Shown here: positions 381 through 62,415 of the stretch, piece after piece
Layout of the letters: every line of letters starts with the position of its first letter
How positions within the stretch are numbered: position 1 is the first letter of the stretch
DNA from: a virus
DNA length: 64,000 bases
IMG/VR virus record: IMGVR_UViG_3300021141_000001
Strand: one strand, 5' to 3'
Translations under genes and position numbers: made by a program
The notes under the pieces: generated by a model
The model's input: only the letters and a program-made list of their open reading frames with translations
What the model was told of the DNA's origin: nothing
Database searches by the model: none

Positions 381-989
381 ATGAGACATGAAAAACAAAA
401 CATATTCTTTATAAGTGACTTACACGTTGGTCATAAAAACGTCCTCAAGTTTGATGGACGACCTTTTGCTGATGTTGATGAGATGCATGTAGAATTAATA
501 AAAAACTGGAACTCAGTAGTAGGTCCAGAAGATACAGTTTATTTCTTAGGTGATTTATCATTTTCTCGTGATGAATTGACAAAGTGGTTTATTTATTCAC
601 TACAAGGTAAGATTCACTTTATTTTGGGTAACCACGATAAAATGAGTCATATTCAGAAGTTTGGTAGATGGGAAAGTGTACACGAATCTTATACTGAGAT
701 TGGTATTTTAGATCCAGAGTCTCTTGAATCAAGAGGTTCACAAGGTTATCAAAAGATAATCTTATCACACTATCCAATTTTAAGTTGGAACAAAGCACAT
801 CACGGTTCTTGGCACTTACACGGTCACTGTCACGGTTCATTGATTAAAAGTCAACAAGAGTATTACAAAAGAAAAGTAATGGATGTTGGTTGTAACGTGA
901 TTGATTATACACCTATCTCCTATGAAAAAGTTAAAGGTATAATGGTTAAAAAAAATATATCTGCCGTAGACCATCATGGAGAAGATTAA
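381..989 (+). CDS. Calcineurin-like metallophosphoesterase
   Basis: SDLHVGH, LGD, GNHD, HYP, HGHCH motifs. Confidence 0.9.
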   Translation: MRHEKQNIFFISDLHVGHKNVLKFDGRPFADVDEMHVELIKNWNSVVGPEDTVYFLGDLSFSRDELTKWFIYSLQGKIHFILGNHDKMSHIQKFGRWESVHESYTEIGILDPESLESRGSQGYQKIILSHYPILSWNKAHHGSWHLHGHCHGSLIKSQQEYYKRKVMDVGCNVIDYTPISYEKVKGIMVKKNISAVDHHGED

Positions 990-1164
990 GATGAAAGAAT
1001 TGGAAACTAAATTAGCTCATTACAAGATGATTGTTAACTCTAATTATGGTGAAAACTCAAGACTAGTAACAGATGTTTACTCTGAAGTTTTTAAGTTGAG
1101 AGATAAGATTCGTACTGTAAAAATTAGAAAAAGTAAAATAAAAAACTTATTCAATGGAAGATAG
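976..1164 (+). CDS. Small protein: DNA polymerase B motif-B-like fragment plus C-terminal RxxKIxxLF tag
   Basis: YKMIVNSNYG matches KxxxNSxYG; ends IRKSKIKNLFNGR. Confidence 0.6.
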   Translation: MEKIKMKELETKLAHYKMIVNSNYGENSRLVTDVYSEVFKLRDKIRTVKIRKSKIKNLFNGR

Positions 1165-1483
1165 ATGGGATTGTATGAAAGTTGTTTGTATTAAAGAATA
1201 CAAAACTATTAAAGTTGGTAGTCATTACTCTATCAAAGGTAGAGGTGATTTATCATGTAATGCTGATCCAGAAGTTGAAGAAAGAAAAGGATATGGTTTC
1301 TGTATTGAAGATGATATTTATGGATCCTACTCTGGTAGAAAAGATTGGTGGAATTTATCACATAATGAAAGAATTAAATGGTATTATTTTACTGAACAAG
1401 AAATGTCAGAATACTTTATCACAGAAGATGAAGATTATAAAGCTTATCGTAGAAACGAAATAATAAAACAAGTATTAAACTAA
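1154..1483 (+). CDS. Hypothetical phage protein (KVVCIK..VG..Y small beta domain) with C-terminal tag
   Basis: Overlap-coupled to neighbours; ends RRNEIIKQVLN. Confidence 0.6.
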   Translation: MEDRWDCMKVVCIKEYKTIKVGSHYSIKGRGDLSCNADPEVEERKGYGFCIEDDIYGSYSGRKDWWNLSHNERIKWYYFTEQEMSEYFITEDEDYKAYRRNEIIKQVLN

Positions 1484-1485
1484 AT

Positions 1486-2355
1486 ATGAAAGACGTAAAA
1501 GGATTTTGTAAATTGATGGATATAAGTGTGCCGGATTACGCACATTTTGATTATTATATTAATCAATTCTCAAAATTAGAAAGATGGAAAAACATCAAAG
1601 ACTTAATTAAACTTTATGAAGAAGCCGAAGAAAAGTATGGTGAACTTTATGAATATAGATTAAAGAAGTCAAATGAAATTATTGATTACTTGAAGAAAAC
1701 AAGAGCTTACAATGAACTTCAAGATGATAATTTATTGCCTGACCTACCGACAACTAAGAATTTTGAATATTCAGAAGATAAGAAATATATCTCAATTGAT
1801 ATTAATAAAGCCAATTGGGTAGTTCTTAAAAATTATGACCCTGAATTTGCGCCTGAACTTGGTGATTCTTATGATGATTTTATTGCTAAGTTTGATGTTC
1901 CTGAAATATTCAATCACTCAAAACAATTGAGACAATATATTTTTGGTAATATCAATCCAAAAAGACAAGGTAAAGCTCAAAGAGTTATAACTGAAAGATT
2001 ATTAAATAGATATAAGCATCTAAATTTAGAAATTGCTTGTGTTAAAAACGATGAGGTTATTTATTCTTTTGATAGTTTTGACCAAATTAACGAAATACTG
2101 ACTACTGTTGATAAAAGTTTATTTAAAACTAAACTTTTCACTGTAAAAAGAATAGAAGATTTCCGAATCAATACATATTTATCTGAGACTGGTAAAGGGC
2201 TATACAAAGAAATGGTAGGGTGTAATGGTAATCTATTTTTCTTATATCTAAAGAAATATGTTTTGAATGAAACACTTGACATAAGAGATTTATATTTCAA
2301 AATGGATGGTAATCTTGCTATCTGGAATGTTGAAGGATTAAAAGTAAGTTTATAA
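1486..2355 (+). CDS. Hypothetical protein, possible minimal polymerase-palm-like fold
   Basis: 289 aa; ISIDINKAN and KNDEVIY resemble palm motifs A and C (weak). Confidence 0.45.
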   Translation: MKDVKGFCKLMDISVPDYAHFDYYINQFSKLERWKNIKDLIKLYEEAEEKYGELYEYRLKKSNEIIDYLKKTRAYNELQDDNLLPDLPTTKNFEYSEDKKYISIDINKANWVVLKNYDPEFAPELGDSYDDFIAKFDVPEIFNHSKQLRQYIFGNINPKRQGKAQRVITERLLNRYKHLNLEIACVKNDEVIYSFDSFDQINEILTTVDKSLFKTKLFTVKRIEDFRINTYLSETGKGLYKEMVGCNGNLFFLYLKKYVLNETLDIRDLYFKMDGNLAIWNVEGLKVSL

Positions 2356-2358
2356 TCT

Positions 2359-2625
2359 ATGTCACAGAGCAGTACATCCGTTAACATTTACTATGGAAAA
2401 GACAAAAAATTAATGGAGTCTTTCCCTATTGAAATTGGAAGAAAAATATCGTCAATAGATGATGCTAGATTTTTGATAATAAATCATTTAGATAGTTTTT
2501 ACGTTGATGTTAAATATAAGATTAATGTCTTTTCTACATTTGATGGTGAAACAACTATCAATTTGTTTTTTGAAGAAGATATTTCTTTGAACAGAGAGCT
2601 TTTATTAAGAAAAATATTAGAATAA
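2359..2625 (+). CDS. Hypothetical protein with C-terminal tag
   Basis: Ends NRELLLRKILE; TAATG coupling to the next gene. Confidence 0.6.
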   Translation: MSQSSTSVNIYYGKDKKLMESFPIEIGRKISSIDDARFLIINHLDSFYVDVKYKINVFSTFDGETTINLFFEEDISLNRELLLRKILE

Positions 2626-3245: not shown

Positions 3246-3254
3246 AAACTTAAA

Positions 3255-3722
3255 ATGAAAACTATCTTAACAAAAGAAGGAAAAATAAAACTTCAAGAAG
3301 AATTAAATTTCCTATTGACAGTTGAAAAAAATCGAGTGATAAATGAGCTATCAGAAGCTCGTGAAAGTGGTACATTAGAAGAAAATACACAATACTTAAT
3401 TGCTAAAGAAGAGTATGAGAAGGTTCAAAAGAAAATTGAAAAGCTACAATCTTTCTTAGCAAATTCAACTGTTGTTGATGTGGCTGATATTAAAACTGAC
3501 AAAGTTGCCATTTTTACAACAGTAAAAGTTTTAAATACTACTAATAGTAAAGAAATGATATTTAAGATTGTTCCAGAGAATGAAATTGATATCAAAGTAA
3601 GTAAAATATCAACAAGTAGTCCAATTGGTGCTGGTTTACTTGGAAAATCTCTAAACGAGGTTTGTGAGGTTAAAACACCAGCTGGTACATTCAGTTTTAA
3701 AATTTTAGAAATAAGTATATGA
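3255..3722 (+). CDS. greA: Transcription elongation factor GreA
   Basis: LTKEGKIKLQEEL, ARESGTLEENTQY, ISTSSPIGAGLLGK, VKTPAG. Confidence 0.9.
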   Translation: MKTILTKEGKIKLQEELNFLLTVEKNRVINELSEARESGTLEENTQYLIAKEEYEKVQKKIEKLQSFLANSTVVDVADIKTDKVAIFTTVKVLNTTNSKEMIFKIVPENEIDIKVSKISTSSPIGAGLLGKSLNEVCEVKTPAGTFSFKILEISI

Positions 3723-4120: not shown

Positions 4121-4131
4121 AGAATATTATT

Positions 4132-4524
4132 ATGATACAATTACCTACTAAAATATATGTTGATAATTCACCTGTTCATGGGTTGGGTGTATTTGCTAAA
4201 GAAAAAATTAACGAAGGTGAGCTAATTGAAGAATGTACAATATTAACTTTACCTATCCAGAAAGGTGAGGATTCTAATCTATTTATAGATTACAGATTTA
4301 ACTTTCCATCTGGTTTGGAATGGGAAGAACAAGTTTTGGTAATGGGTTGTGGTGGTATTTACAATCACTCTAACACACCAAATGCTCATTGGTATTCTAA
4401 TAATGAAAAAAGAACTTTTTGCTTTGTTGCTTTAAGAGATATTGAAGTTGGTGAAGAAATATTTACCTTCTATGGTGATGAGTCCTACTGGAATGATGGT
4501 AGAACATACATTGATGTTAAATGA
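4132..4524 (+). CDS. SET-domain methyltransferase
   Basis: SPVHGLGVFA, YNHSNTPN, RDIEVGEEIFTFYG. Confidence 0.9.
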   Translation: MIQLPTKIYVDNSPVHGLGVFAKEKINEGELIEECTILTLPIQKGEDSNLFIDYRFNFPSGLEWEEQVLVMGCGGIYNHSNTPNAHWYSNNEKRTFCFVALRDIEVGEEIFTFYGDESYWNDGRTYIDVK

Positions 4525-4913
4525 CAAAAGAAGAATTCATACTATTTATTGAAGATTTAGGATTTACTCAGACTTGGATGTCTAAATCAAATGGATATTC
4601 TTTAGCAACTGATTCCGCTGATCCAGCGTATAAAGTTATTGGTAATCCTAATCAAAATTTGATGGCTTTTGCTGACCAATTAAAAATCACATTAGATGAT
4701 GAAAGAGGAATTGCTCAACTTTCATTATCACAAATGAGTACTCATATGATGGCTGGTAAGAATTTTGGAAATTTTCAATTATCAACATTTGGTAATGATG
4801 GTGATTTTCAATTAGAGATATTTATGAGTTTTGTAAAAGGTGCTTTTAAGAAACCACCTAATAATATTATTCAATATATGAGAGATAAAAAAATTAGGGA
4901 TATATTAAAATAA
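4521..4913 (+). CDS. Hypothetical protein with C-terminal tag
   Basis: Ends MRDKKIRDILK. Confidence 0.65.
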   Translation: MTKEEFILFIEDLGFTQTWMSKSNGYSLATDSADPAYKVIGNPNQNLMAFADQLKITLDDERGIAQLSLSQMSTHMMAGKNFGNFQLSTFGNDGDFQLEIFMSFVKGAFKKPPNNIIQYMRDKKIRDILK

Positions 4914-5948: not shown

Positions 5949-6380
5949 ATGCCTTTACCGTTTTTTACTAATCCAAATAATAGTCCACTATCATCAGCTC
6001 TTAATAGTAATATTCCTATTGCTATGAATTATCAACTTGAAGAAAAGATTGAGTTGGATTTGAATAATCCTATATTTGTGGCTTATGTTAATACAAGTAA
6101 TCTAACAAGACAAGCCGCAGAAGAACATCTTTATAGAACTAAAAAAATATTTGATGTTTATAAAAATATCACTATTTGGGTAATTGCTTCGAATGAAACT
6201 AAAATAGAGTGTGTTTATGATGGTCAATGTAGAACTCGTGATATAGAAATAAGTGACTTAATAAAGGAGATAAATACAAGGATAGATATAATGGCTAACT
6301 CACATTCTTTTGATGATTTCAAAATTAACATCAGAGATTGGAGATTAAGCGAAATAATAAATGGCACTGAGGAAAAATAA
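5949..6380 (+). CDS. Small protein: portal (T4 gp20-like) fragment plus C-terminal tag
   Basis: AYVNTSNLTRQAAEEHL resembles gp20 WYVDTGNMPARKAAEHM; ends IRDWRLSEIING. Confidence 0.6.
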   Translation: MPLPFFTNPNNSPLSSALNSNIPIAMNYQLEEKIELDLNNPIFVAYVNTSNLTRQAAEEHLYRTKKIFDVYKNITIWVIASNETKIECVYDGQCRTRDIEISDLIKEINTRIDIMANSHSFDDFKINIRDWRLSEIINGTEEK

Positions 6381-6738
6381 AATAGAAATACTTGATAGAA
6401 TAATTACTAAGGCTGAACTTGGTGATGATTACTATTGGAGTTATTGGTATGATGATGAGTGGGATGATTATCACGATGGTTACTGTGATTGTTATATGTG
6501 TATGCCTGTTGATTATGATTATCTACCAGAAGAATTTCAACCTAAAGCAGTAACACATATAAGCAAAAGAGGTATAAGAATAACACAACATACTCATTCT
6601 CCTGGTAAATTAATAGATATGACTTCTATTTACTCTAAAGAAGTTCTTAGACAAAAAAGAATCAACCATATTTTAGGGATAGAGTCAATAGAACATTCTC
6701 GTCCAACTTTAGGAGATATTTTGAATATTAAAAAATAA
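6361..6738 (+). CDS. Hypothetical protein, Asp/Trp/Tyr/Cys-rich N-terminus, tag near C-terminus
   Basis: DDYYWSYWYDDEWDDYHDGYCDCYMC; LRQKRINHILG. Confidence 0.6.
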   Translation: MALRKNKIEILDRIITKAELGDDYYWSYWYDDEWDDYHDGYCDCYMCMPVDYDYLPEEFQPKAVTHISKRGIRITQHTHSPGKLIDMTSIYSKEVLRQKRINHILGIESIEHSRPTLGDILNIKK

Positions 6739-7006: not shown

Positions 7007-7606
7007 ATGGCAAATAAATTTGTATCCAGTACTCTATCCTTAGATGATTTAAGGATGGAGTTTAGAAATTTTAAATTAAAATCAATCAATAATGAAATTG
7101 AGTTCAAGATTTCAGACTCAATGATTGATGAAAATAAAGAGTTGTTAACTTTTATAACTGATACTTTTCCAAATGATATCATTACAGGTTCACTTGCTCT
7201 TAAACTATTTGGTTTAATTAGTAGAAAAAGTAACGATGTTGATATCTTAATTAAAGATAAAAATCGTTATGATAAATATATTCTTGATGGTTATGATGAT
7301 GAATTTACAACTCCTAATCGTTTAGGTTACAAACCATTTAAATATAAAAAAGGAATTTTTTCAAAAGAAGTAGAATATAATGTTGATTTCTTTGAGGATA
7401 AAAATGTTTCTTTTCTTGAGTTTACTATTGATATTAGTACAACATTTCATTCTAATATTAAAAAAATTAAAATTCATAACCCTTTAGAGATTATGGATTA
7501 TAAATTAGGTATTTTTGCTAATCCTAAAGTTGGTAGAACAACAGGTAGAAAACACAACGAAGATTTGACTCAAATTTTTAGTCAAGCTCCTTGGCAAGTT
7601 AAATAG
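7007..7606 (+). CDS. Pol-beta-superfamily nucleotidyltransferase-like protein
   Basis: ITGSLAL...NDVDIL and VDFF (GS-DxD-D pattern); N-terminal FRNFKLKSI tag-like segment. Confidence 0.65.
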   Translation: MANKFVSSTLSLDDLRMEFRNFKLKSINNEIEFKISDSMIDENKELLTFITDTFPNDIITGSLALKLFGLISRKSNDVDILIKDKNRYDKYILDGYDDEFTTPNRLGYKPFKYKKGIFSKEVEYNVDFFEDKNVSFLEFTIDISTTFHSNIKKIKIHNPLEIMDYKLGIFANPKVGRTTGRKHNEDLTQIFSQAPWQVK

Positions 7607-9594: not shown

Positions 9595-9876
9595 ATGGAA
9601 AAGAAAGATTCAAATAGTAGTGGATTTGCCGAAATATTTTTTAGTAAACTAAAAGAACAATCATTTACAATTATTTTAATGGTTGGTATGTTAATATACC
9701 AAAACAAAGTATTTAATGAACAAGTCATAAGATATGAAAAACTTGTTAATGAAAAACAACAATACATTGATAAGTTAATTGAAGACCAAAGACAGAGAGC
9801 TATTTTAAGAGAACAGTATTTGTTACAACAAAGAGATTCCTATGTTGATGATTTAATAAAAAATAATCATAAGTAA
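9595..9876 (+). CDS. Small membrane protein with coiled coil (holin-like)
   Basis: Single TM segment FTIILMVGMLIY followed by a helical region. Confidence 0.5.
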   Translation: MEKKDSNSSGFAEIFFSKLKEQSFTIILMVGMLIYQNKVFNEQVIRYEKLVNEKQQYIDKLIEDQRQRAILREQYLLQQRDSYVDDLIKNNHK

Positions 9877-16276: not shown

Positions 16277-17242
16277 ATGTCAATGCTTATTTTTAACGAC
16301 GAAATGTACAGCTTTCTACAATTTGCCCAGAGAGAGTCTATTATTGCGGCATTATTTTTACAAGGTGATTCATCACATATCAATGATGAAGGTAATTATG
16401 TCAAAAGAGTTGAAGATGAAATAGATGTTGTTTCATTTTTACCAAAATCTAAATATGAAAAAGTTGAAAATGAATGGGAAAGTGGTCGTATTAAAATTAA
16501 AATTGGAAGATTTATTAGAAAATTTCTAACAGATTTTTCAATTCAAAATTTTAACATTAATGACCAAATGATTGAAAAATTTGTAAATCTCTATAAATCT
16601 TATTTCTCTAGAGATATATCTAAATTAAAGATTGTAGAGGGTGAGGAAATTCTAAAATATTATTTAGAAGATAATTATCATAGTCTTAATGGAAATAGAG
16701 CTGGTTCTCTTTGGAATTCTTGTATGAGACAAAGAGAACGAAATAAGTTTATGAAACTTTATGCTAAAAACTCTGATAAAGTCAAAATGTTAGTTTTCTT
16801 TTCAGATGATGATAAGGTAAGAGCTAGAGCATTGATATGGGAAGGTGTTAAAGACCATAAAGATTCTACCAAAGAGTATAAGTTTATGGATAGAATTTAC
16901 TATTACTACGACCATGATATTAATTTTTTCAAGGATTGGGCAAAAGAAAGCGGATATCTTTGTAAATGGGAACAAAGTGCTAAAACTGAAATGTTATTTG
17001 ATGATGGTACTGGTTCTCCAGTTATAAAACAATTATATGTTATGTTAGACGAATATAATTTGCCTTACTATCCTTACTTAGACACTTTTAAGTTCTTTAA
17101 TTTTGATAAAGGTAGATTCTCTAACTCTGACTCATATAACTTTGATTATATTTTAGTCCAAAGTTCTGGTGCTATGGAACGCGAAGAGCGTGAGCCAGAT
17201 GAAGATGAAATGTTATACTTTGATGAAGATGATAATAATTAA
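16277..17242 (+). CDS. Conserved phage protein (SCM / RALxW / DRIY / PYLDT motifs), paralog of 40746-42284
   Basis: GSLWNSCMR, RARALIW, MDRIY, YPYLDTF. Confidence 0.7.
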   Translation: MSMLIFNDEMYSFLQFAQRESIIAALFLQGDSSHINDEGNYVKRVEDEIDVVSFLPKSKYEKVENEWESGRIKIKIGRFIRKFLTDFSIQNFNINDQMIEKFVNLYKSYFSRDISKLKIVEGEEILKYYLEDNYHSLNGNRAGSLWNSCMRQRERNKFMKLYAKNSDKVKMLVFFSDDDKVRARALIWEGVKDHKDSTKEYKFMDRIYYYYDHDINFFKDWAKESGYLCKWEQSAKTEMLFDDGTGSPVIKQLYVMLDEYNLPYYPYLDTFKFFNFDKGRFSNSDSYNFDYILVQSSGAMEREEREPDEDEMLYFDEDDNN

Positions 17243-26847: not shown

Positions 26848-26944
26848 GATTATTATATTTATTAAATACTCTTAGTTTCCTATTTTCAAACAAACAGAAG
26901 ATGTAAATAATTATATATAGATAATAAAATTAATTGACAATTAA

Positions 26945-37090: not shown

Positions 37091-37423
37091 ATGAAAACAC
37101 CAAATTTATTTCCCGTAGCTATGAAAATTGCTGCTCAAACTATTGGACAAGATTTAGTCAGTGTTCAACCAATGGCTGGACCAGGTGGAATGACTAAAGA
37201 AGAAAGAGAAAGAATTGAAGCCGAGATTAAACAAAAGAATCGTGATGGTAAAATCGATTCATTAATTGAAGGATCAGAATATAAAGAAGAAAAATTAGAA
37301 GAACATCCTGATTATAAACCAGGTAGTGGTTGTCAATTATTTTATATGGATTATACTTACAATTCTCCAACTCACAAAAAAACAAGAAGAAGTAAAAAGA
37401 AAAAGAAAGATGGGAGTATTTAA
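37091..37423 (+). CDS. Small protein: major capsid protein (gp23 Gol-region) fragment interrupted by the tag
   Basis: LFPVAMKIAAQTIGQDLVSVQPMAGPGG ... NRDGKIDSLIEG ... QLFYMDYTY. Confidence 0.7.
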   Translation: MKTPNLFPVAMKIAAQTIGQDLVSVQPMAGPGGMTKEERERIEAEIKQKNRDGKIDSLIEGSEYKEEKLEEHPDYKPGSGCQLFYMDYTYNSPTHKKTRRSKKKKKDGSI

Positions 37424-37595
37424 GAGTCCAGGAGTTTTTGTTAAAGAAGTAGATATATCTATTGTTAGACCAACTTTTTCCAAAAGATATTCAAGAAGAA
37501 TAAAAATAGGTAAAATATTTGATATAGATGTTCCTAATATTATTATAACTTCTACTCCAAAAGGAGGACCCTCAAACTTTCCACAAATCTGGTGA
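37410..37595 (+). CDS. Small protein: tail sheath N-terminal fragment plus tag
   Basis: MGVFKSPGVFVKEVDIS ... SRRIKIGKIFD; likely start is the ATG at 37410. Confidence 0.65.
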   Translation: MGVFKSPGVFVKEVDISIVRPTFSKRYSRRIKIGKIFDIDVPNIIITSTPKGGPSNFPQIW

Positions 37596-40422: not shown

Positions 40423-40702
40423 TAATTTGTTAGAATTATATCTTAACGCTAAGAAAGATAAGAAAGAAGCTATTAGTCTTCAAAAATATGAGAAAGCGGC
40501 TATGGCTAGAGATACAGAACGCAAACATTCAGTTGATTTGTATGAGTTATTGAGTGGTGATAAAGTTGAAGCTTTTGATTATAATAAATTTGATAAACTT
40601 ATTGATGATTACTGTATGAGTAAGTATGAAGTAAGTATTTATGATACACACTCATTAAAACAAATTATTAGACAGAAAAGACTAAAAGATTTAGGAATAT
40701 AA
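40412..40702 (+). CDS. Small protein: UVR (UvrB/C, ClpC M-domain) coil plus C-terminal tag
   Basis: KKEAISLQKYEKAAMARDTER; ends IIRQKRLKDLGI. Confidence 0.7.
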   Translation: MEVDNLLELYLNAKKDKKEAISLQKYEKAAMARDTERKHSVDLYELLSGDKVEAFDYNKFDKLIDDYCMSKYEVSIYDTHSLKQIIRQKRLKDLGI

Positions 40703-40745: not shown

Positions 40746-42284
40746 TTAACAATCGTAACAATCTACTTGTCCTCGACCATAACAATTACCACATTCTACT
40801 GTTTCATCTCCATCACATTCACGACATGTTCTTTTACCATCTCCATCACAATCTGAACAATTCACTTTACCAGATCCATCACAATCTGAACATTCTTCCT
40901 CTTCGCCATCAGAGCCTTCAACATTACCAGATCCATCACAATTTGAACAATCTTCTTTACCATCACCATCACAACTATTACACTCAATAGTTCCTTCACC
41001 ATCACAATTACCACAAGAAACTGTACCTTCACCGTCACAGTCATAACATTCAGTTCTACCAGAACCATTACAAGTATCACAAGGTCTAACATAGTCACCA
41101 CCTGTATCTTCTAAGAAGTAACAACCACCAGTATCCTCATTTGAAATAGTTTTTGTTCTTGAGTTAAAATATTTAAGTGTATCTAAATAAGGAAAATTAT
41201 CCATACTAGCATCAGTTAAATTAACAGTTAAATCTAAATTAACTCTACTTCCATCTGGAGCTATAGCTTGACCACTATCTGAACTATTATTATGTTCTTT
41301 ATAGTACCAACCATTTTCTTTAGCATAATCTCTGAATAGTTCAACATCAGAAGGATTTACTGTATAGATTCTATCTAAATATTCTTTACCATCTTTTAAT
41401 TTCCAAAGTAATGCTCTACCGATAATTTTTTCAGTATCATCCATTGATTTGTAAATAACTAAACCAACTTCTGGATTAGCAGTATAAACTTCTAACCAAC
41501 TATCTGGAGCACCAGCCATACAAGACGAACCTAAAGTACCATTTCTTTCAAAGTAGTTTTCATTATGATACCAATGAGCAATATCGGAACCTCTAGCAAC
41601 TTCAATATAAGAGAATTTATCATTCATCTTATCAATAGTAGCTTTATATAAATTCACAAATTGTTCAAAATCTTTATCAGTAAATTCAGCACCAGCCGCT
41701 TTTAAAAGCGCTCTCATTGCTCTACCTACTTTAATCTCTTGTCTACTTGATGACCAAACTTTTTTAAGTTTTTCATCAACAGATCTTAATTTCTCAACAT
41801 TATAAACGCCTTGACCAGCATCATTTCCAGATAAATCTTTAAATTTAACCCAAGCATAAGATTTACCACTTGTTTCAGATGTTACTTTAGCAACAACTTC
41901 ACCTAAATCTCTTGAATTAGGTTTATAAGGTTCAGAACCTTCTTCAAATGTATAACCTAGTTTTTCAAATAAGCCATTATTAGACTCTTTGTGTTTTAAC
42001 CAACCTCCACCAGAACCTGTAAATCTAACCACTTCTTTAGTATCACCTAAAATCTCTTGTGCTTTTCTATCAGGAGTAAAAGAAATTGTATCATTTTTAG
42101 AAAATTCTATATCAAGATAATTAGCTTGAACAGTTAAGTCATTATTTTCAACACCTAAAATGGCTTTAGCCATTGGATGGTCAATTTTAGCCATTGCCTT
42201 TCTGAAGTTATCAGAGAAAACGACATTTGATTCTAGTATAAACTCTAGATTTTCTTTTATAAAGTCTGAATATTTTTTAATCAT
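40746..42284 (-). CDS. SCM/RALLW/DRIY-motif protein with capsid-targeting-like N-terminus and tandem CxxCxGxG zinc fingers
   Basis: MIKKYSDFIKE; GTLGSSCM, GRALLW, LDRIY, FPYLDT; about 9 DnaJ-type zinc-finger repeats. Confidence 0.75.
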   Translation of the reverse strand: MIKKYSDFIKENLEFILESNVVFSDNFRKAMAKIDHPMAKAILGVENNDLTVQANYLDIEFSKNDTISFTPDRKAQEILGDTKEVVRFTGSGGGWLKHKESNNGLFEKLGYTFEEGSEPYKPNSRDLGEVVAKVTSETSGKSYAWVKFKDLSGNDAGQGVYNVEKLRSVDEKLKKVWSSSRQEIKVGRAMRALLKAAGAEFTDKDFEQFVNLYKATIDKMNDKFSYIEVARGSDIAHWYHNENYFERNGTLGSSCMAGAPDSWLEVYTANPEVGLVIYKSMDDTEKIIGRALLWKLKDGKEYLDRIYTVNPSDVELFRDYAKENGWYYKEHNNSSDSGQAIAPDGSRVNLDLTVNLTDASMDNFPYLDTLKYFNSRTKTISNEDTGGCYFLEDTGGDYVRPCDTCNGSGRTECYDCDGEGTVSCGNCDGEGTIECNSCDGDGKEDCSNCDGSGNVEGSDGEEEECSDCDGSGKVNCSDCDGDGKRTCRECDGDETVECGNCYGRGQVDCYDC

Positions 42285-42357
42285 TTTCAACTATGTTATG
42301 TTTTATAGATATAAGTATATATTAAATATATAATGTACAAAAATTAATTTATTACAT

Positions 42358-42549
42358 ATGTTGATCGTAGAGGTTGAAGGAAAACTAACAATTGAAAAAG
42401 CTCTTAAAATTCTTAAAAGAAAATGGGACAAAACTAAAGCTATGAAAGAGCTTAGAGGAAGAAAAGAATTTACTAAAAAGTCTGTAAAAAGAAGAGCTGA
42501 AGTAACAAGAGCCGCTTATATTCAGAAGAAATACAGAAGTAATGATTAA
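42358..42549 (+). CDS. rpsU: Ribosomal protein bS21
   Basis: IEKALKILKRK..KTKAMKELRGRKEFTKKSVKRR..RAAY. Confidence 0.9.
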   Translation: MLIVEVEGKLTIEKALKILKRKWDKTKAMKELRGRKEFTKKSVKRRAEVTRAAYIQKKYRSND

Positions 42550-42841
42550 GAAGTTACTTAGTTTATTTCCCAATCAAAATAATAAAACTTATGATTTAGG
42601 AAAATTACAAAAGTCTGGATTTATATCATCTTTACCTGATATGTCTGGTTGTCCTAATTGTAAAAGTAAAAATATATCTTGGAAGTTCTTTATACCAACA
42701 GATGGTTCTAAACCAACTATTCCATCACAAAGTGTTTGTAATGATTGTGGATATAAAGATGAAAAAGGTCAGTTTGAAATGACAAATAAATCGTTACTTA
42801 GAGAGAAAAAAATTAATCAAATATTAGATGAGTTTCAATAA
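42542..42841 (+). CDS. Zinc-ribbon protein with C-terminal tag
   Basis: CPNC..CNDCGY; ends LREKKINQILDEFQ. Confidence 0.65.
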   Translation: MIKKLLSLFPNQNNKTYDLGKLQKSGFISSLPDMSGCPNCKSKNISWKFFIPTDGSKPTIPSQSVCNDCGYKDEKGQFEMTNKSLLREKKINQILDEFQ

Positions 42842-43043
42842 AAGATTTATCAGTAAAAATAGTTTATTATCAGCCGCTTCTAATGGCTTAGATTACTTAA
42901 TAGGTTATGTAACAAAACCAGATGCTCTTATTATAGAGTCGGATGGTATATCTCACCAAGTTTGTGATATTGTTGGCTTAACAAAAGATAAACAAGAGAT
43001 GAAACAAAAATTAAAAGAAATAGGATTCTATGAATTTGAATAA
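42828..43043 (+). CDS. Hypothetical protein
   Basis: 71 aa, overlap-coupled. Confidence 0.55.
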   Translation: MSFNKRFISKNSLLSAASNGLDYLIGYVTKPDALIIESDGISHQVCDIVGLTKDKQEMKQKLKEIGFYEFE

Positions 43044-43737
43044 AAACTATTACTCAATTCTTGGAGTTGATAATAACTCTGATGAAAAGGTAATAAAAAA
43101 AACTTATTATAAATTATCATTTACGCATCACCCTGATAAAGGCGGTAATCCTATTATCTTTGGTGAAATGACTGAGGCATATGATGTTCTTTGTAGTGAA
43201 CAAAGAAAAGATTATGATGTTAAAAGTAAATTTGGTAATAATTATAATGAGTATTTTGAGCTATTTGATATTAATTTAGAATTTGATTATAATAAAGAAA
43301 AATCAAATTATGAAAAATTCAAAAAGAATGAAGTTTTAGATATCTATATGAATATAGATGAAACATTTAATGGTACGTTAGAATATGAAAGATGGGTTAA
43401 GTGTAAAACTTGTGATGGTACAGGTAAAGACCTTTCAGCTAAAATTGTTATTAAAGACAATGATGGTAATATTTTAAGAACATTTGATGCTGATGATGGA
43501 TGCGATTTCTGTGAAGGATCTGGTAAAGACTACAAAGGAGATGCTTGTAACTTTTGTAATGGTAAAGGTAAAGTAGGTTTAACACCTTGTAAAAAGTGTA
43601 ATGGTGAAAAACGAATTTTAGGAAAACAAAAACTATCAGGTATTAAATTAACCGGTGATGAAACTAAAATTGAATCAATGGGTAATTGCTCTAAAGATGT
43701 TGCTGGAATGGTTGGTTATCTTTTATTAAAAAAATAA
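43030..43737 (+). CDS. dnaJ: DnaJ-like co-chaperone (J domain plus zinc fingers, shortened)
   Basis: YYSILGV, HPDKGG, four CxxCxGxG. Confidence 0.85.
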   Translation: MNLNKNYYSILGVDNNSDEKVIKKTYYKLSFTHHPDKGGNPIIFGEMTEAYDVLCSEQRKDYDVKSKFGNNYNEYFELFDINLEFDYNKEKSNYEKFKKNEVLDIYMNIDETFNGTLEYERWVKCKTCDGTGKDLSAKIVIKDNDGNILRTFDADDGCDFCEGSGKDYKGDACNFCNGKGKVGLTPCKKCNGEKRILGKQKLSGIKLTGDETKIESMGNCSKDVAGMVGYLLLKK

Positions 43738-51487: not shown

Positions 51488-52222
51488 ATGAATAAGAAAA
51501 AAGTATTGATTTTTACTGGAGCAGGAGTTTCAGCTGAAAGTGGCGTTGCTACTTTTAGAACTGGTGATGATGGGCTTTGGTATAATCATAAAGTAGAAGA
51601 TGTTGCCACACCTAGTGGGTGGCGTAGAGATAGAGAAAAAGTTCTTAATTTCTACAATATGCGTCGTGCTCAAATGAAAGATGTTGAGCCAAATTTGGCG
51701 CATAAAATAATTGCTGAATTAGAAAATGATTATGATGTTACTGTTGTAACTCAAAATGTTGATGATTTACACGAAAGAGCAGGCTCAACTAATATTATTC
51801 ATCTACATGGTGAGTTAACAAAAGCTAGAGGCTGTATGTATGATCATAAAACATCACCATTAGACACAGTTGTTGATGTGGGATATAATCCAATTAATAT
51901 TGGAGATAAATGTCCAACAACTGGCTCTCAATTAAGACCTCATATTGTTTGGTTTGGTGAAGATTTAGATCCTGATTTTGTTGATATGGCTACTAAAGCG
52001 GCTAAAGAATGTGATGTATGTATTGTTGTTGGAACTTCAATGAAAGTTTCACCTGCTAATACAATTCCATTTTTGACTAGAGAAACTACTAAGATTTACT
52101 ATGTAGATTTATCAGACCTTGATTTCTATGTACCAGAATACAGAAATGACTTATTTACTCATTACCAAGAATTGGCATCAACTGGTATGGAAAAAGTTAA
52201 AAACGATTTAAAAAATATTTAA
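51488..52222 (+). CDS. cobB: NAD-dependent deacylase, Sir2/CobB family
   Basis: TGAGVSAESG..TFR, TQNVDDLHERAG, HLHG, RPHIVWFGE, VGTS..V.PA. Confidence 0.95.
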   Translation: MNKKKVLIFTGAGVSAESGVATFRTGDDGLWYNHKVEDVATPSGWRRDREKVLNFYNMRRAQMKDVEPNLAHKIIAELENDYDVTVVTQNVDDLHERAGSTNIIHLHGELTKARGCMYDHKTSPLDTVVDVGYNPINIGDKCPTTGSQLRPHIVWFGEDLDPDFVDMATKAAKECDVCIVVGTSMKVSPANTIPFLTRETTKIYYVDLSDLDFYVPEYRNDLFTHYQELASTGMEKVKNDLKNI

Positions 52223-52223: not shown

Positions 52224-52454
52224 ATGAAAGAAGAATATTACAAAGACATATTTGGTGGTAAAAAATATGGCGACTATATGGTTTATGGTTTAGATAAATC
52301 TAAAGAATCTACATATAGTGATTACACTGATTTACTTGACCAAATGAACGCAACATCCTTCACTGAAGAATCTGAAGAACAAAAAGCTATTCGTGAAGCA
52401 AAAGAAAAGGCTGAGAAAAGAAATAATAAGATTGACCAACTTTTAGGAGAATAA
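52224..52454 (+). CDS. Hypothetical protein with C-terminal tag
   Basis: Ends KRNNKIDQLLGE. Confidence 0.65.
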   Translation: MKEEYYKDIFGGKKYGDYMVYGLDKSKESTYSDYTDLLDQMNATSFTEESEEQKAIREAKEKAEKRNNKIDQLLGE

Positions 52455-52455: not shown

Positions 52456-53019
52456 ATGTCACAAATATCAATTGTTGATTGGATTACGGCTTTATTAATA
52501 GTCGTGCCTTTATTTGCTTTACTTATATCAATTCCAAGTTTTATCTCTATGTATAAACTTGGATTCAAAGCTTATGTAGAACAATTGATACTTTTGAAAA
52601 CAATGTTGAAAAAGATATCATCTGGATATAAAATTACTCAAAATCAAGTTTATAATTACAGCGGTGTTAGTTATAATGGACCAAAATCAGTAACACAAGT
52701 TGAAACTAATCATTTCTTTCCAATAGTTATTAATAAAGATAATCTCTTAGTTCTTAATAAGAAAGAAGGTCCATTTAATACTTTACATATTCAGTATTGT
52801 AAACATGAAAATGATAACTGGGATAATAATATGGTTGAGATAAAAACCAGCAATTGTTTATTTACTCAAATTCTAAATGACAGATTTCAAAAAAAAGTTG
52901 ATAATCTTATGAAAGAGTCTGTTCAACTTGATGGAGTTGAAAATCTAAATGAACTATTAAATAGTGAAATAACTTCTATTAAAAGAGAAGATAAACTTAA
53001 TGCTTTATTAAATGATTAA
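52456..53019 (+). CDS. Membrane-anchored protein with C-terminal tag
   Basis: N-terminal TM helix; ends KREDKLNALLND. Confidence 0.65.
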   Translation: MSQISIVDWITALLIVVPLFALLISIPSFISMYKLGFKAYVEQLILLKTMLKKISSGYKITQNQVYNYSGVSYNGPKSVTQVETNHFFPIVINKDNLLVLNKKEGPFNTLHIQYCKHENDNWDNNMVEIKTSNCLFTQILNDRFQKKVDNLMKESVQLDGVENLNELLNSEITSIKREDKLNALLND

Positions 53020-53176
53020 AAGAGACATTGTAATAGTTGACCATATCAGTATGATAAGTGCTACTACGGTAGACCCATCCATATTGGAAAAACTTAATAT
53101 TCGTGTTAAGAATATTCGTAAGTATAGAGGTCGTATTGAAAAACGAAAAGAAAAAATAAAAAGAATTTATGAATAA
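53012..53176 (+). CDS. Small protein (54 aa): DnaB/T7 gp4 helicase Walker-B-like fragment plus tag
   Basis: Manual ORF MIKRDIVIVDHISMIS...KRKEKIKRIYE, overlapping both neighbours by 8 nt. Confidence 0.55.
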   Translation: MIKRDIVIVDHISMISATTVDPSILEKLNIRVKNIRKYRGRIEKRKEKIKRIYE

Positions 53177-53357
53177 AGAAACTCTTGATATATTTGGTCA
53201 ATATCTAAATGGTAATAAACAAATTATGATGTTGAAGGCTAGGCAAACTGGTAAGTCAAGTGCCACCGCTTCTTTAATGGCTTGGAAACATCTTCATAGT
53301 AAATATGAAAGAGCAAGAACGAGAAAAGAAACCATAAAACGGCTTTTTAATATATAA
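53169..53357 (+). CDS. Small protein: terminase large subunit Walker A fragment plus tag
   Basis: IMMLKARQTGKSSATA; ends TRKETIKRLFNI. Confidence 0.7.
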   Translation: MNKETLDIFGQYLNGNKQIMMLKARQTGKSSATASLMAWKHLHSKYERARTRKETIKRLFNI

Positions 53358-56894: not shown

Positions 56895-58010
56895 TTATCT
56901 GGACTTTTTAAATTCTTTTTTATCATTAGAAATATAGAATTTATCAAAATTATAGTATTTCTTATACACTTCTTTGATTTTCTTCATATTAACTTTATCT
57001 AAAATATCATAAACTGACCAACCCTCTGGATTGATATATTGATTAACATTCTTATATCTAAGAATCTCATCTTTAGCCATTCTTACTTTGTAGTAATCTT
57101 TAACTAAGTCAAATCTTTCTTTTGTTAAATATTTATCAGGGTTTGTAATCACCTCTTTAACAGCGTCAACTACACCATTGTAATTTTTATTAGATGTTTG
57201 AGTTGAGATAGTATTAATACCTTGATTGTTAACTCTTGACTGATAACAATGTACATAATAAACTAATCCTTTTTTCTCTCTAATTTCTTGATAAAGTGGA
57301 GATTTTAATCCTAATGACAACATAGCATTGATAAAGTGAACATAAGCAAAATCTTCCTCAATTATTGGAGAAAGAATAGCAATAGATGTTTTGTCTTTGA
57401 ACTCATTACTTAATTCTAAATCAACATCATTTTCACCAAACTCAATAGTTTTTGTAATATCTCTCTTAGCAAAATCAATAGTATTGTTTTTGTAAGGTTT
57501 GTTTTTAGATACGTTAATAATCTTAGTAGGCTTAGCATATTGAAGTTCAAAGAAATTCAAACAATCCATATACTTTAGTTTTTCTAAATCTTCTTTTAAT
57601 CCAATTGGATCATAATCACCAAATAATTTACGAGAAAGATTTAACATATGTGTTTGAGTTTGGTCATTGAAACAATCCATGTATTCTTCAAGTACAATGT
57701 TTCTTTCATTTTCAAATTGTTCTTTAGTAACATTGAATTCACCAAGTAAGTCCATAAACTCACCTTTCCACTTATTTACTTTTTCATCTAAGCCAGTTAG
57801 ATAAAAAACAATTTCATTTGAACTTGTGTAAGCATTCCAATCAATGCCGTCTTTGTCAAAATCTTCTTGAAGATGATCAAAGTTTTTACACATTAAATGT
57901 TCCATTAAGTGAGAGATACCAAACCAACCTTTTTTCTCAAGATTAGTTGAACCTTCATATACAACGTAGAAACCAGATAATTCAGTTTCAGATTTAAGAT
58001 TTATTATCAT
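56895..58010 (-). CDS. M16-family zinc peptidase (insulinase/pitrilysin)
   Basis: GISHLMEH (HxxEH), NAYTS, ERNIVLEE, LYQEIREKKGLVY. Confidence 0.92.
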   Translation of the reverse strand: MIINLKSETELSGFYVVYEGSTNLEKKGWFGISHLMEHLMCKNFDHLQEDFDKDGIDWNAYTSSNEIVFYLTGLDEKVNKWKGEFMDLLGEFNVTKEQFENERNIVLEEYMDCFNDQTQTHMLNLSRKLFGDYDPIGLKEDLEKLKYMDCLNFFELQYAKPTKIINVSKNKPYKNNTIDFAKRDITKTIEFGENDVDLELSNEFKDKTSIAILSPIIEEDFAYVHFINAMLSLGLKSPLYQEIREKKGLVYYVHCYQSRVNNQGINTISTQTSNKNYNGVVDAVKEVITNPDKYLTKERFDLVKDYYKVRMAKDEILRYKNVNQYINPEGWSVYDILDKVNMKKIKEVYKKYYNFDKFYISNDKKEFKKSR

Positions 58011-59134: not shown

Positions 59135-59170
59135 AAAATATTAGAATTTTTTTTGTAAAGTATATATTAA

Positions 59171-60133: not shown

Positions 60134-60218
60134 AAGATTACTTTTATATAATTTTGAAATAAAGTTGTTTTTTCTAAGAATGTTTTATATATTTGTAGTT
60201 ATAAATATATTTAATACA

Positions 60219-60827
60219 ATGATAAAAGTTGGACTTTCGGGTAATAGATATTCAGGTAAAAATGAAGTCTGTAATATTTTCAGAAAACTCACCATACCTG
60301 TTTTTGAAGCAGATACTGTTTTGAAATTTATTATAAATCATGACGCTTCTGTTAATAGCCAAATAATGGCAAAGTTAAAACCCTTACACGGTAAATCTGT
60401 TTATGTAGATCCACAATTTGTAAAAACTAAAACAGAATTTGATATAGTTGTAGATTGTGCTCAGCATGAACTAATGAGAGCTTATGAAGCTTTCTCTGAA
60501 AAACACAAATCTTCTATTTACACAATATTTCATTCTTCAATTTTATTTGAAAGAAACTGGCATAAACTAATGAACCACAATATTGCTATTTTTTGTCCAA
60601 AAATTACACGAATGGAAAGATGTAAAGAATTGACAAATATGAAAGTTTCTGATGTTGCTATGTCAATGAGAAATGAAATAGACGACTTAGATAAAAATAA
60701 AATGGCTAACTTTGTAGTTCATAATTATAATGGTAGAAAAGTTTTAGACCAAGTTCATCAAATCGACCAGTTTGTTATTGACTCTTATTTAAGATTAGAA
60801 CAAACTATCGTATCAAAACACTATTAA
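60219..60827 (+). CDS. coaE: Dephospho-CoA kinase-like protein (divergent)
   Basis: MIKVGLSGNRYSGK, IPVFEAD, ILFE, ANFVVHN; start behind TATATTTG at 60188. Confidence 0.7.
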   Translation: MIKVGLSGNRYSGKNEVCNIFRKLTIPVFEADTVLKFIINHDASVNSQIMAKLKPLHGKSVYVDPQFVKTKTEFDIVVDCAQHELMRAYEAFSEKHKSSIYTIFHSSILFERNWHKLMNHNIAIFCPKITRMERCKELTNMKVSDVAMSMRNEIDDLDKNKMANFVVHNYNGRKVLDQVHQIDQFVIDSYLRLEQTIVSKHY

Positions 60828-61291
60828 TGAAAACTATTAAAATAAAATTAATCGAACCAACAACTCAAAAATTGGCTTTTGTTAAGCTAATAAAAGAGTG
60901 TAGTGGACTTGGTCTAAAAGAAGCTAAAGATTTGTGTGATAATATACATAGTTATTCAGAAAGAGTTCATGAAATGCCTATTCGTGACTGGGAAACTTAT
61001 GATTATAACACAGGAGTAACTACACCAGCCACAACAGACTACCGTAGAAAATTTACTACTGAAATTAAAAATATTGAGGGTAAATTTGTTGTTAACGGTG
61101 GGGTTCAATGGGATAGAAATGTAAAAATGTTACAACTTGGAATAGCTGATAAATCTGACTATACCGAATTTATGAAAGATTATATCTTAAATAAATTTGA
61201 CAATTCAGAAGATTTACTTACCTTTGTACTCAATAAGTTTTCTAAAGAAGATTTACAAGAAGCATTCAATAAAATTAATATAGAATTATAA
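60827..61291 (+). CDS. Ribosomal protein bL12 C-terminal-domain-like fragment fused to the tag and a helical tail
   Basis: KLAFVKLIKECSGLGLKEAKDLCD; WDRNVKMLQLGI. Confidence 0.7.
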   Translation: MKTIKIKLIEPTTQKLAFVKLIKECSGLGLKEAKDLCDNIHSYSERVHEMPIRDWETYDYNTGVTTPATTDYRRKFTTEIKNIEGKFVVNGGVQWDRNVKMLQLGIADKSDYTEFMKDYILNKFDNSEDLLTFVLNKFSKEDLQEAFNKINIEL

Positions 61292-61687
61292 ATGGCTAAC
61301 GCTTATATTCATTCAAAGTCCTCTGCTCGAAAATTTGGAGGTGAACCAGAAGATTATCTTCATATCCATATGAAAATGGATTGTTCTAAAGCATATGTAT
61401 CTGATAATAGACACAGGGTACTCACTCACACAAGTTTTTGGATTCATGAAGTAATGATACCTATTTTTGGTTACACTATGAAAAATTCGGCTGGTAAAGA
61501 ATTCTCTGTTAAAGATGTTTGTGAGCAACACATCTTAGAAGACTTTGGAATGAGATTTATACCAACTCCTCAAGATTATCTTGAAAATATGGAGTTCATG
61601 GACTGGATGCAAAATGGCATCAAAGGTCACCCATCATCTTTTGAAAAACTTTCACAAAAAGGAAATATTAAAGTAAATTTAGATTAA
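61292..61687 (+). CDS. Conserved phage His-rich protein (DUF6915-like)
   Basis: HSKSSARKFGG.PEDY..IH..MD.SK..D.RHR..H, EQHILED. Confidence 0.7.
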   Translation: MANAYIHSKSSARKFGGEPEDYLHIHMKMDCSKAYVSDNRHRVLTHTSFWIHEVMIPIFGYTMKNSAGKEFSVKDVCEQHILEDFGMRFIPTPQDYLENMEFMDWMQNGIKGHPSSFEKLSQKGNIKVNLD

Positions 61688-61689
61688 AT

Positions 61690-62415
61690 ATGATAGTAAT
61701 TTGTAAAAGACCAACTAAGAGATTAGTTAAAGGTGTTAGATATGAAACTGGCAGTCTTTATAACAGTGGTAATAACCAACGTTGGCAAGAAGGTACTGTA
61801 GAAATTCTTGGTATTGGAAGATTTGTTGTTGATAATTTTACTACAACAGATGGCAATCCACTACCTAAGACGGATATTATTGTACAACCAACTCCTTTAG
61901 AACAACCTACTTTTGAACAACTTTCAAAAGGTGATATTCTTATTTGTACATCAGATAGTTACAAAACCCTTGGTAAGGGTTGTATGTATCAAATTGAAGA
62001 ACTAAAATCAGTTTCTTCTCAAAAAGTAGGTTGGAATAAACAAACTTATACACACGTTGAAAAAAGTATTAAGTTTGTTGGTATTCCTCGAACATTAAAA
62101 TTCTCTCCTTGGAGATTTAGAAAATTAACAGCTCAAGAAGCTCGTGAGATTTCTTTAAACTCTGTATTACATGGTGAAGAACCAGTAATTGTAAAATCAA
62201 AAGACATAAGAAAGATTGAATTAGTGGCTAATAAAGAATTAGAACTAATGTCTATGTTATCTAAATCAATTATTGATACAAACAGACATCATCTTTCTAT
62301 TATTGATTGGGCTTGTCAAAAGTCTGGAACTAATTTAGGAATAACATCAGATGATTACGCAACTATTTTGAATATGTCTTTGAAAGATATCCTTGAGAAA
62401 ATTGAAACAAAATAA
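61690..62415 (+). CDS. Hypothetical protein, two small beta domains plus internal tag-like segment
   Basis: VICKR..LVKGVRYE and LICTS..LGKGCMYQ; AREISLNSVLHG. Confidence 0.6.
   Translation: MIVICKRPTKRLVKGVRYETGSLYNSGNNQRWQEGTVEILGIGRFVVDNFTTTDGNPLPKTDIIVQPTPLEQPTFEQLSKGDILICTSDSYKTLGKGCMYQIEELKSVSSQKVGWNKQTYTHVEKSIKFVGIPRTLKFSPWRFRKLTAQEAREISLNSVLHGEEPVIVKSKDIRKIELVANKELELMSMLSKSIIDTNRHHLSIIDWACQKSGTNLGITSDDYATILNMSLKDILEKIETK

Follow-up and report, generated by a model that had tools for sequence, protein, structure and literature searches.

The C-terminal tag in the window

The stretch analysed here, 64,000 nucleotides of the IMG/VR virus record IMGVR_UViG_3300021141_000001 (hereafter the window, position 1 being its first letter), is 29% G+C and densely coding, and the standard genetic code fits both its stop-codon usage and its long intact open reading frames (ORFs). 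Eleven unrelated ORFs in the window end in variants of one short peptide, here called the tag, whose core, R-[DENKQ]-x-[KR]-[IL]-x-x-[ILV]-[LIFY], finishes 0–6 residues before the stop codon. The public record closest to the window is that of an uncultured phage, LR745206.1 (634,780 bp), which shows 74% nucleotide identity across part of the window and is syntenic with it at 265–314 kb, and the IMG/VR genome G001 (476 kb) is 75–89% identical to most of the window. LR745206 as a whole, LR756502, LR756504, LR756501 and the IMG/VR genomes G001 and G004 were used as relatives, together with 27 IMG/VR loci sampled through an M16 peptidase. The ORF sets are uncurated greedy longest-ORF calls, comprising 81 ORFs in the window and 971 in LR745206.

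A first-pass annotation of the window had listed 17 copies of such a helix, at coordinates that are the start codons of the ORFs concerned and not positions of the motif. All 17 peptides are indeed present on the plus strand, as are all copies described below; 11 of them lie 1–6 residues before a stop codon, one lies 20 residues before it and five are not C-terminal. The 11 C-terminal copies belong to ORFs 976, 1154, 2359, 4521, 5949, 40412, 42542, 52224, 52456, 53012 and 53169, named by their start positions. RKSKIKNLF (1126..1152) stands three residues before the stop of ORF 976-1164 (62 amino acids) and is kept in the G001 orthologue, and RNEIIKQVL (1451..1477) stands one residue before the stop of ORF 1154-1483 (109 amino acids), whose orthologue in LR745206 has a body about 70% identical and ends in LRDRKINSIIND. 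RELLLRKIL (2593..2619) likewise leaves one residue before the stop of ORF 2359-2625 (88 amino acids), the G001 orthologue of which ends in NRELLIRKILE. The consensus-like copy RDKKIRDIL (4881..4907), again one residue from the stop, closes ORF 4521-4913 (130 amino acids); its orthologue in LR745206 retains just 27% identity in the body, with the tag identical at eight of 13 positions. In ORF 5949-6380 (143 amino acids) RDWRLSEII (6333..6359) is followed by six residues. The tag-like RQKRINHIL (6649..6675) of ORF 6361-6738 (125 amino acids) is the copy that lies 20 residues before the stop, and the LR745206 orthologue has LRERKIDQIL at the equivalent place, so the helix tolerates a C-terminal extension.

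Further along, RQKRLKDLG(I) (40670..40696) ends ORF 40412-40702 (96 amino acids, with a weak UVR-like match) as an LGI-stop variant, which is common in LR756502; the orthologue in LR745206 ends in IREIKLKQLGIK. REKKINQIL (42800..42826) lies four residues before the stop of the zinc-ribbon-like ORF 42542-42841 (99 amino acids). Four further carriers follow: ORF 52224-52454 (76 amino acids) with RNNKIDQLL (52419..52445) two residues from the stop, a tag kept in the IMG/VR orthologues of loci L015, L016, L018 and L025; ORF 52456-53019 (187 amino acids, with an N-terminal hydrophobic anchor) with REDKLNALL (52984..53010) also two residues from the stop, where a family alignment of five sequences shows S-I-x-R-E...L to be invariant at the C-terminal end; ORF 53012-53176 (54 amino acids) with RKEKIKRIY (53144..53170) one residue from the stop; and ORF 53169-53357 (62 amino acids) with RKETIKRLF (53322..53348) two residues from the stop and eight orthologues in the IMG/VR loci. 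A possible degenerate copy absent from the first-pass list, RDSYVDDLI (9832..9858), matches the loose core pattern only; it lies five residues before the stop of ORF 9595-9876 (93 amino acids), for which no homologue was found.

The remaining five listed peptides are not C-terminal tags. RNFKLKSI (7064..7087) lies near the N-terminus of ORF 7007-7606 and is partly conserved in its orthologue, as is the remainder of that protein, whereas RDGKIDSLI (37241..37267), RNVKMLQLG (61115..61141) and REISLNSVL (62143..62169) lie in the middle of the products of ORFs 37091-37423, 60827-61291 and 61690-62415, respectively. RRIKIGKIF (37494..37520) falls in ORF 37326-37595, which overlaps ORF 37091 in an alternative frame and is probably not a gene, since the LR745206 orthologue of ORF 37091 stops where ORF 37091 does.

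The logo of 146 carriers from LR745206 extends the core to K(-3)-[SQ]-x-[LI]-R-[DEN]-x-K-[IL]-[ND]-x-[IL]-[LIF], followed mostly by 0–3 variable residues. The informative positions are R1, [DEN]2, K4, [IL]5, [ILV]8 and [LIF]9, with neither a Gln nor an aromatic pair. The invariance of the Arg follows from the definition of the search, while position 2 shows a strong preference for Asp, Glu or Asn and position 4 for Lys. The pattern is both basic and amphipathic; projected on a helical wheel, the Arg falls inside the stripe of hydrophobic residues formed by the hydrophobic residue preceding it, I5, I8 and L9. The tail between tag and stop consists of 0–7 variable residues (20 in ORF 6361), the last of which are unconserved.

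Enrichment at C-termini and distribution among relatives

The enrichment at ORF ends over shuffled ORFs, which the first-pass annotation had proposed as a check, is strong. Its regular expression matches eight C-termini in the window (0.03 expected) and the looser core expression matches 11 (0.47 expected); in both cases none of 2000 residue shuffles of the 81-ORF set reached the observed number. The expression had been derived from the window and was therefore tested unchanged on the whole of LR745206, an independent genome, where 135 matches were obtained, 108 of them within six residues of a stop, compared with about 1.0 expected from the internal match rate, a 109-fold excess. This result upholds the earlier view of a single amphipathic helix, present at the C-termini of numerous unrelated ORFs, that behaves like a shared handle. 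A position-specific scoring matrix (PSSM) returned 147–169 carriers in LR745206 where 1–3 were expected, and the number of carriers in this genome is put at about 146–156 of the 971 ORFs. The shared C-terminal tag is real and far above chance.

The tag is carried by 111 of 661 ORFs (17%) in G001, by 46 of 550 (8%) in G004 and by about 25 of 81 in a 42-kb stretch of LR756502, often as the LGI-stop variant; a 41-kb stretch of the more distant LR756504 has four carriers among 54 ORFs, and no tag was seen in the 41-kb stretch of LR756501 that was examined. It also occurs in most of the 27 IMG/VR loci sampled by way of the M16 peptidase. Two apparent carriers were set aside: ClpP of LR745206 is a false positive whose native motif is YGMIDEIL, and a histidyl-tRNA-synthetase-like protein is probably a false positive of the loose expression.

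Selection on the peptide

The carriers in the window have no mutual blastp similarity outside the tag, and removal of the tag from 146 carriers of LR745206 leaves 145 blastp clusters (E ≤ 1e-3). At the conserved positions synonymous codons follow genome-wide usage, the Arg codons AGA/AGG/CGT, for example, making up 72/16/9% in the tag and 76/12/6% in the genome, and no conservation of DNA was found 3' of the stop among the carriers. Codon usage and the unconserved downstream DNA rule out a cause at the DNA level, be it a repeat, a promoter or a terminator located at the ends of genes. Six window carriers have recognizable orthologues in LR745206, with bodies 27–70% identical, and all six keep the tag; five further carriers have no detectable homologue there, but the same positions hold tagged ORFs. 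In the comparison with G001, tag codons had a ratio of nonsynonymous to synonymous substitution rates (dN/dS) of 0.19, the bodies of the carriers one of 0.34 and the other genes one of 0.22. From the codon usage, the unrelated bodies, the retention in orthologues and these ratios it follows that selection acts on the tag as a peptide. Decaying debris, which the first-pass annotation had suggested recognizing by a dN/dS near 1 and by absence from related phages, does not describe these ORFs: the carriers are conserved in relatives and under purifying selection, and are thus real, fast-evolving genes with a constrained tail.

Nature and expression class of the carriers

The carriers of LR745206 are short (a median of 111 amino acids, compared with 144 for all ORFs), their bodies are mildly acidic, and they are mostly soluble, a transmembrane-like or hydrophobic segment being found in 6–7%; the product of ORF 52456, with its N-terminal anchor, is an exception. 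Searches of Pfam and PHROGs with 145 of them recognized almost none. An Atlas feature search with a conserved carrier of 249 amino acids returned capsid-family clusters at a score of 0.91, but with few shared features (98–118), and was treated as unreliable. The sole carrier of known function is a full-length family-B DNA polymerase (PolB), which in LR745206, LR756502 and G001 ends in a variable linker followed by a consensus tag; its gene lies outside the window.

Eight of the 17 ORFs had been read by the first-pass annotation as fragments bearing signature motifs of PolB, portal, major capsid protein, tail sheath, helicase, terminase, ClpC/UVR and bL12. Pfam gave just three matches among the 17: the Ribosomal_L12 C-terminal domain in ORF 60827 (positions 3–37 of 67, E = 8e-7, above the curated cut-off), Gp23 in ORF 37091 (positions 5–44 of 376, E = 3e-4, below the cut-off) and UVR in ORF 40412 (E = 0.017, weak). 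No Pfam match to PolB, portal, sheath, helicase or terminase was found in any of the 17 ORFs, and the two best fragment-like ORFs, 60827 and 37091, carry no C-terminal tag. ORF 60827-61291 (+) encodes 154 amino acids, the first 40 of which resemble the bL12 C-terminal domain, and is 39% identical to its LR745206 copy. ORF 37091-37423 (+), in a late-class cluster of small ORFs, encodes a small protein with a Lys-rich tail and an N-terminus similar, below threshold, to the first 40 residues of T4 Gp23; its product may form part of the prohead core or of a scaffold.

Two motifs upstream of genes prevail in the intergenic DNA, namely TAATATATA and TAnnTTTG, which is of Bacteroidota type and thus host-type. 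In the window TAATATATA lies 12–35 nucleotides upstream of about 20 mostly structural or large genes, for example those starting at 4940, 10106, 12265, 18136, 25585, 29704, 35013, 36734 and 37626 on the plus strand and those ending at 12230, 42290, 51401 and 55123 on the minus strand, and in LR745206 it precedes 80 of the 345 genes having an intergenic gap. Its short, constant spacing from genes that are mainly structural or large makes it look like a late promoter. Ahead of the early clusters stands TAnnTTTG. Directly behind TAnnTTTG stand 33 carriers of LR745206 and behind TAATATATA two, compared with 107 and 142 other genes (Fisher p = 2e-9); among the ten window carriers at PSSM ≥ 8, eight are in operons behind TAnnTTTG and one is behind TAATATATA. 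The promoters of early or middle type that had earlier been assigned to the tagged genes are therefore borne out, and by this promoter split the carriers are classed as early genes. A complete GreA-type transcript-cleavage factor (3255-3722), a SET-domain protein (lysine methyltransferase-like; 4132-4524) and a Sir2-family protein (51488-52222), all on the plus strand, are encoded in early-class clusters interleaved with the tag carriers.

Candidate partners encoded by the phages

As the C-terminal tails of polymerases are classical processivity-factor sites, a sliding clamp was sought. In T4/RB69 (gp43), archaea (PolB) and herpesviruses, the polymerase docks onto its processivity factor through its C-terminal tail. 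A gp44-like clamp loader is encoded in the relatives, with the Pfam domains AAA, DNA_pol3_delta2 and Gp44_lid and 2507 tblastn matches in phages annotated as clamp loaders. Around PolB an HNH endonuclease and a CCA-adding enzyme are encoded, and around the clamp loader amidoligase-like, glutamine-synthetase-like, gp25-like and gp15-like proteins, with no clamp in either neighbourhood; in PTm1 and PAU, two relatives with annotation, no clamp is annotated beside the loader. A candidate of 207 amino acids syntenic with PolB was dropped, as it looks helical by eye. The tag-like end of the clamp loader, GKFR[DE]IL, is a family-wide terminal helix that is also present in PTm1, PAU and LR756501, outside the clade, and was not taken as evidence. 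The gene adjoining the clamp loader in G001 (L053:6761-7846, minus strand) belongs to a conserved family of 362 amino acids with no Pfam domain and more than 140 homologues in huge-phage contigs; its motifs TGLHINIG and NYVEFRYxGG resemble those of a glutamine-synthetase-type amidoligase.

A ClpC-like unfoldase of 709–714 amino acids is encoded in the genomes G001–G003 and in LR745206 (the G001 copy is L054:6644-8773, plus strand) and is absent from the window. It has D1, a UVR M-domain, D2, a D2-small domain and an intact VGF ClpP-docking loop, but the Clp_N domain is replaced by an acidic stretch of about 50 residues that is probably disordered, and its closest homologues are canonical ClpC proteins with about 150 extra N-terminal residues. 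In G004 the gene is split into a D1 part (L063:9694-11181, plus strand) and a D2 part (L061:912-2102, minus strand), about 50 kb apart on opposite strands and each with extra terminal residues, which could represent a split intein or a two-piece unfoldase. A phage ClpP is also encoded in the clade, outside the window and behind a host-type promoter. Complex prediction for the ClpC-like unfoldase with the C-terminal 45 residues of carriers gave no verdict (score 0.00) and, with controls not run, counts neither way.

The window itself encodes an M16 (insulinase/MPP-type) peptidase (56895-58010, minus strand) in a late-class operon, with its HLMEH zinc motif intact; its identity to the LR745206 copy, 83%, greatly exceeds the average for the genome, and it occurs in 27 IMG/VR contigs. 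M16 enzymes recognize Arg-containing basic amphipathic peptides, and by analogy this peptidase could process the tag.

Other features of the window

Profile scans of the window show accessory and core genes typical of huge phages. In addition to GreA, the SET-domain protein, Sir2 and the M16 peptidase, these include NUDIX (5422), a ligase-like protein (7626), PhoH (17275, minus strand), an SbcC/Rad50-like ATPase (38674), a Dam methylase (55846, minus strand), a Toprim primase (59171, minus strand), CoaE (60126) and giant NHL- and collagen-like fibre proteins. Three genes related to DnaJ lie within the 64 kb (40746-42290, minus strand; 16277-17242, plus strand; 43030-43737, plus strand): one has a J-domain and a zinc-finger, and two are paralogues sharing a 250-residue domain, one of them with a DnaJ-type Cys-rich finger. 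Several proteins have a long acidic C-terminal tail that contains aromatic residues (...MLYFDEDDNN and ...DDEDDDF are examples), namely those at 16277-17242 (+) in the window, L098:1807-2082 in G001, L011:19107-19379 in LR745206, and L014:31252-31524 and 25675-27078 in LR756502. These tails recall the docking tails of SSB and T7 type and could represent another class of terminal motif in this group of phages.

Discussion

The best reading of the tag is a docking helix, portable and about 13 residues long, with the consensus K-x-x-h-R-[DEN]-x-K-[IL]-x-x-[IL]-[LIF] ahead of 0–7 variable residues and the stop, which evolution would have appended to the C-termini of more than 100 unrelated, mostly small, soluble, early orphan proteins and of the family-B polymerase in a clade of huge phages of Bacteroidota type. 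Since the Arg sits inside the hydrophobic stripe, the helix would fit a groove with an acidic pocket, and it would do so on one shared partner, so tethering many accessory proteins to one place. That the tag is a common docking handle for a shared partner is, in our judgement, very probable. A docking helix is favoured over a degron recognized at its end because the free carboxylate is at no fixed distance from the tag, and over both a degron and a membrane helix because the tail varies, ORF 6361 extends well beyond the tag, the pattern has the period of a helix and the Arg sits in the hydrophobic face.

As to the identity of the partner, it may be the processivity platform of the polymerase, a sliding clamp or an equivalent loaded by the phage gp44-like loader. 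The tag would then act like a PIP-box or the clamp-binding tails of T4 gp43, gp33 and gp55, concentrating early accessory proteins on replicating phage DNA. This platform is the likeliest partner, though a doubtful one, and a good deal weighs against it. In LR745206 Pfam searches for sliding clamps (PF00712, PF02916 and PF00705) were all negative, and among the 25 families listed by PHROGs for 38 conserved ORFs of 190–290 amino acids there is no clamp. One candidate in G001 (L079:6892-7584, plus strand) is an acidic protein of 231 amino acids with the internal repeat YK..SIH....KF.FK and more than 1600 homologues, the best 120 listed being at least 85% identical, but its AlphaFold model has a mean pLDDT (predicted local distance difference test) of 70 and no significant match in the PDB, and the protein gave no useful match in the Atlas. 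The motif is basic and has neither the Gln and aromatic pair of the PIP-box nor the acidic-hydrophobic character of T4 clamp tails, we know of no precedent for more than 100 clamp clients in one phage, and other clients that would be expected in the window (ligase-like protein, primase and SbcC) are untagged, leaving the polymerase as the one carrier that points to a clamp in particular. Taken whole, the docking helix together with the processivity platform is the explanation we favour, and we hold it tentatively.

The main rival reader, ranked after the processivity platform and unlikely in our estimate, is the phage ClpC/ClpP machine, for which the tag would be a disposal or tethering label, serving either the timed degradation of early proteins, PolB among them, or the tethering of adaptors with their bound host targets in the manner of SspB XB on ClpX. 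C-terminal degrons and adaptor tails (ssrA, MuA RRKKAI and SspB XB) are an established mode of recognition by Clp unfoldases. The distribution of the genes fits, with a ClpC-like protein in G001–G003 and LR745206 and a split one in G004, where the tag is rarer, and so do the canonical ClpC proteins among the nearest homologues, the host-type promoter of ClpP and the need that early proteins would have for removal. However, the tag ends 0–7 and up to 20 residues from the C-terminus and the last residues are unconserved, unlike those of ssrA and MuA degrons, and with the N-domain the phage unfoldase has lost the usual docking site for adaptors and phospho-Arg. ClpP and the carriers are, moreover, co-expressed early, so that timing alone would not separate them, and the destruction of a tagged replicative polymerase is not obviously useful. 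Less probable still is an address label for a place, be it a phage-made compartment, the inner membrane (as with the MinD/FtsA-like helix) or the capsid for injection. A short peptide placed terminally on over 100 unrelated proteins is built like a targeting signal, the amphipathic and basic pattern resembles membrane-targeting helices, and PolB would have to arrive at the site of replication. Yet the invariant Arg and the near-invariant Asp/Glu/Asn and Lys are atypical for such helices; import into a compartment is disfavoured because the other replication proteins are untagged, and packaging into the capsid because the carriers are early-class and almost never stand behind the late-type TAATATATA. 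No shell, encapsulin or chimallin-type gene was noticed, although no systematic search was made.

The first-pass annotation had proposed that the tagged mini-proteins are fragments of core proteins acting as decoys for immune sensors or as poisons of competing phages, a model that the profile searches largely refute and to which we now give very little credence. Many small early proteins do share a handle, and three of the listed ORFs show weak partial similarity (to the bL12 C-terminal domain, the Gp23 N-terminus and UVR). The idea nevertheless lacks support, because the bL12-like and Gp23-like ORFs are untagged and the other core proteins have no profile match in the 17 ORFs; the tagged bodies give no significant match that would make them bait fragments, the 145 carriers of LR745206 are nearly all orphans in Pfam and PHROGs, and the polymerase that carries the tag is complete and not a fragment. 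No result here ties the tag to sensing by Avs, CapRel or Lit. That the tag has no function at all, being a product of K/I/L-rich composition, hidden paralogy, a DNA repeat at gene ends or ORF-calling artefacts, is refuted by the tests that were run and can be left with next to no weight. A G+C content of 29% does make Lys, Ile, Leu and Asn abundant, and the ORF sets are greedy calls and not curated genes, but the C-terminal excess is 100-fold by both shuffles and the internal match rate, the bodies are unrelated, codon choice is genome-like with nothing conserved past the stop, the dN/dS of the tag is low, and orthologues keep the tag across genomes at 74–88% nucleotide identity or less.

To return to the docking helix, a lineage-specific helix on 8–17% of the proteins of a phage, including its DNA polymerase, may constitute a proteome-wide addressing system with a dedicated phage-encoded receptor, gathering the early accessory proteome at one site, for example the replicating chromosome or a phage-made compartment. 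Such a virus-encoded protein-sorting code could, we suggest with similar reserve, be without a described counterpart in bacteria or phages; full-text searches of the literature found no published description of such a tag. If one peptide does join more than 100 proteins to a common partner, it gives experiments one way into the largest group of dark-matter genes in huge phages, serving as bait for its reader and, fused to GFP, for locating the early accessory proteome. In that case it would be the first code for sorting or docking proteins across a whole proteome to be described in a bacterial virus, and it could serve engineering as a portable tag; as the polymerase carries it, it may also physically link host-takeover proteins to the replisome. 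The tag can also be used to recognize accessory genes in metagenomes.

Comparison with known systems

The tag has the full set of defining features of none of the known families with which it was compared. The membrane helices of MinD and FtsA are defined by physico-chemistry and have no invariant residues; the tag is amphipathic and basic, yet strongly prefers Asp, Glu or Asn at position 2 and Lys at position 4. Cargo peptides of encapsulins and microcompartments are also short terminal, often C-terminal, helices on unrelated cargo, and those known dock onto one shell protein, but their cargo comprises the enzymes of one pathway, whereas the tag carriers are orphans, and the sequences are unlike; no shell-like Pfam match was found among the window proteins scanned, the genomes of the relatives not having been searched for shell families. 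The ankyrin/PRANC (F-box-like) proteins of poxviruses are comparable in that these viral accessory proteins are numerous, evolve fast and combine variable bodies for target binding with a constant C-terminal module for binding a hub, which in their case is a folded domain on paralogous ankyrin proteins that binds host Skp1, and not a 13-residue helix on non-homologous bodies.

The capsid targeting sequence of T4 (IPI–III and Alt) is, to our knowledge, the one described case in a phage of a short peptide shared by unrelated, fast-evolving accessory proteins. It differs in being N-terminal, cleaved by the prohead protease, confined to a few proteins and late, with head assembly, while the tag is C-terminal, early-class and present on about 15% of ORFs. 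With ssrA, MuA RRKKAI and SspB XB, each read by one machine, the tag has in common that it is C-terminal, short and portable, and the relatives encode their own ClpC-type unfoldase and ClpP. The ssrA and MuA degrons, however, have a fixed register to the free carboxylate and conserved last residues, neither of which is seen in the tag, and their sequences are unlike it; from the tethers of Clp adaptors it is set apart by a phage ClpC that has no adaptor-binding N-domain.

With PIP-boxes and clamp tails (archaeal PolB and RFC-L; T4/RB69 gp43, gp33 and gp55), the differences lie in the missing Gln and aromatic pair, the basic character with an invariant Arg and the more than 100 carriers in place of a handful, and the 146-carrier logo conforms neither to the PIP consensus Q-x-x-[LIM]-x-x-[FY]-[FY] nor to the acidic-hydrophobic, LDFL-type tail of T4. 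Of the clamp system itself the loader was found in the relatives, and no clamp was found by Pfam, by PHROGs or in the one candidate folded. In both cases, nevertheless, a short helical peptide occupies the extreme C-terminus behind a flexible linker, with the same hydrophobic spacing h-x-x-h-h, and is carried by a family-B replicative polymerase as well as by unrelated proteins, which in the known system share one docking platform.

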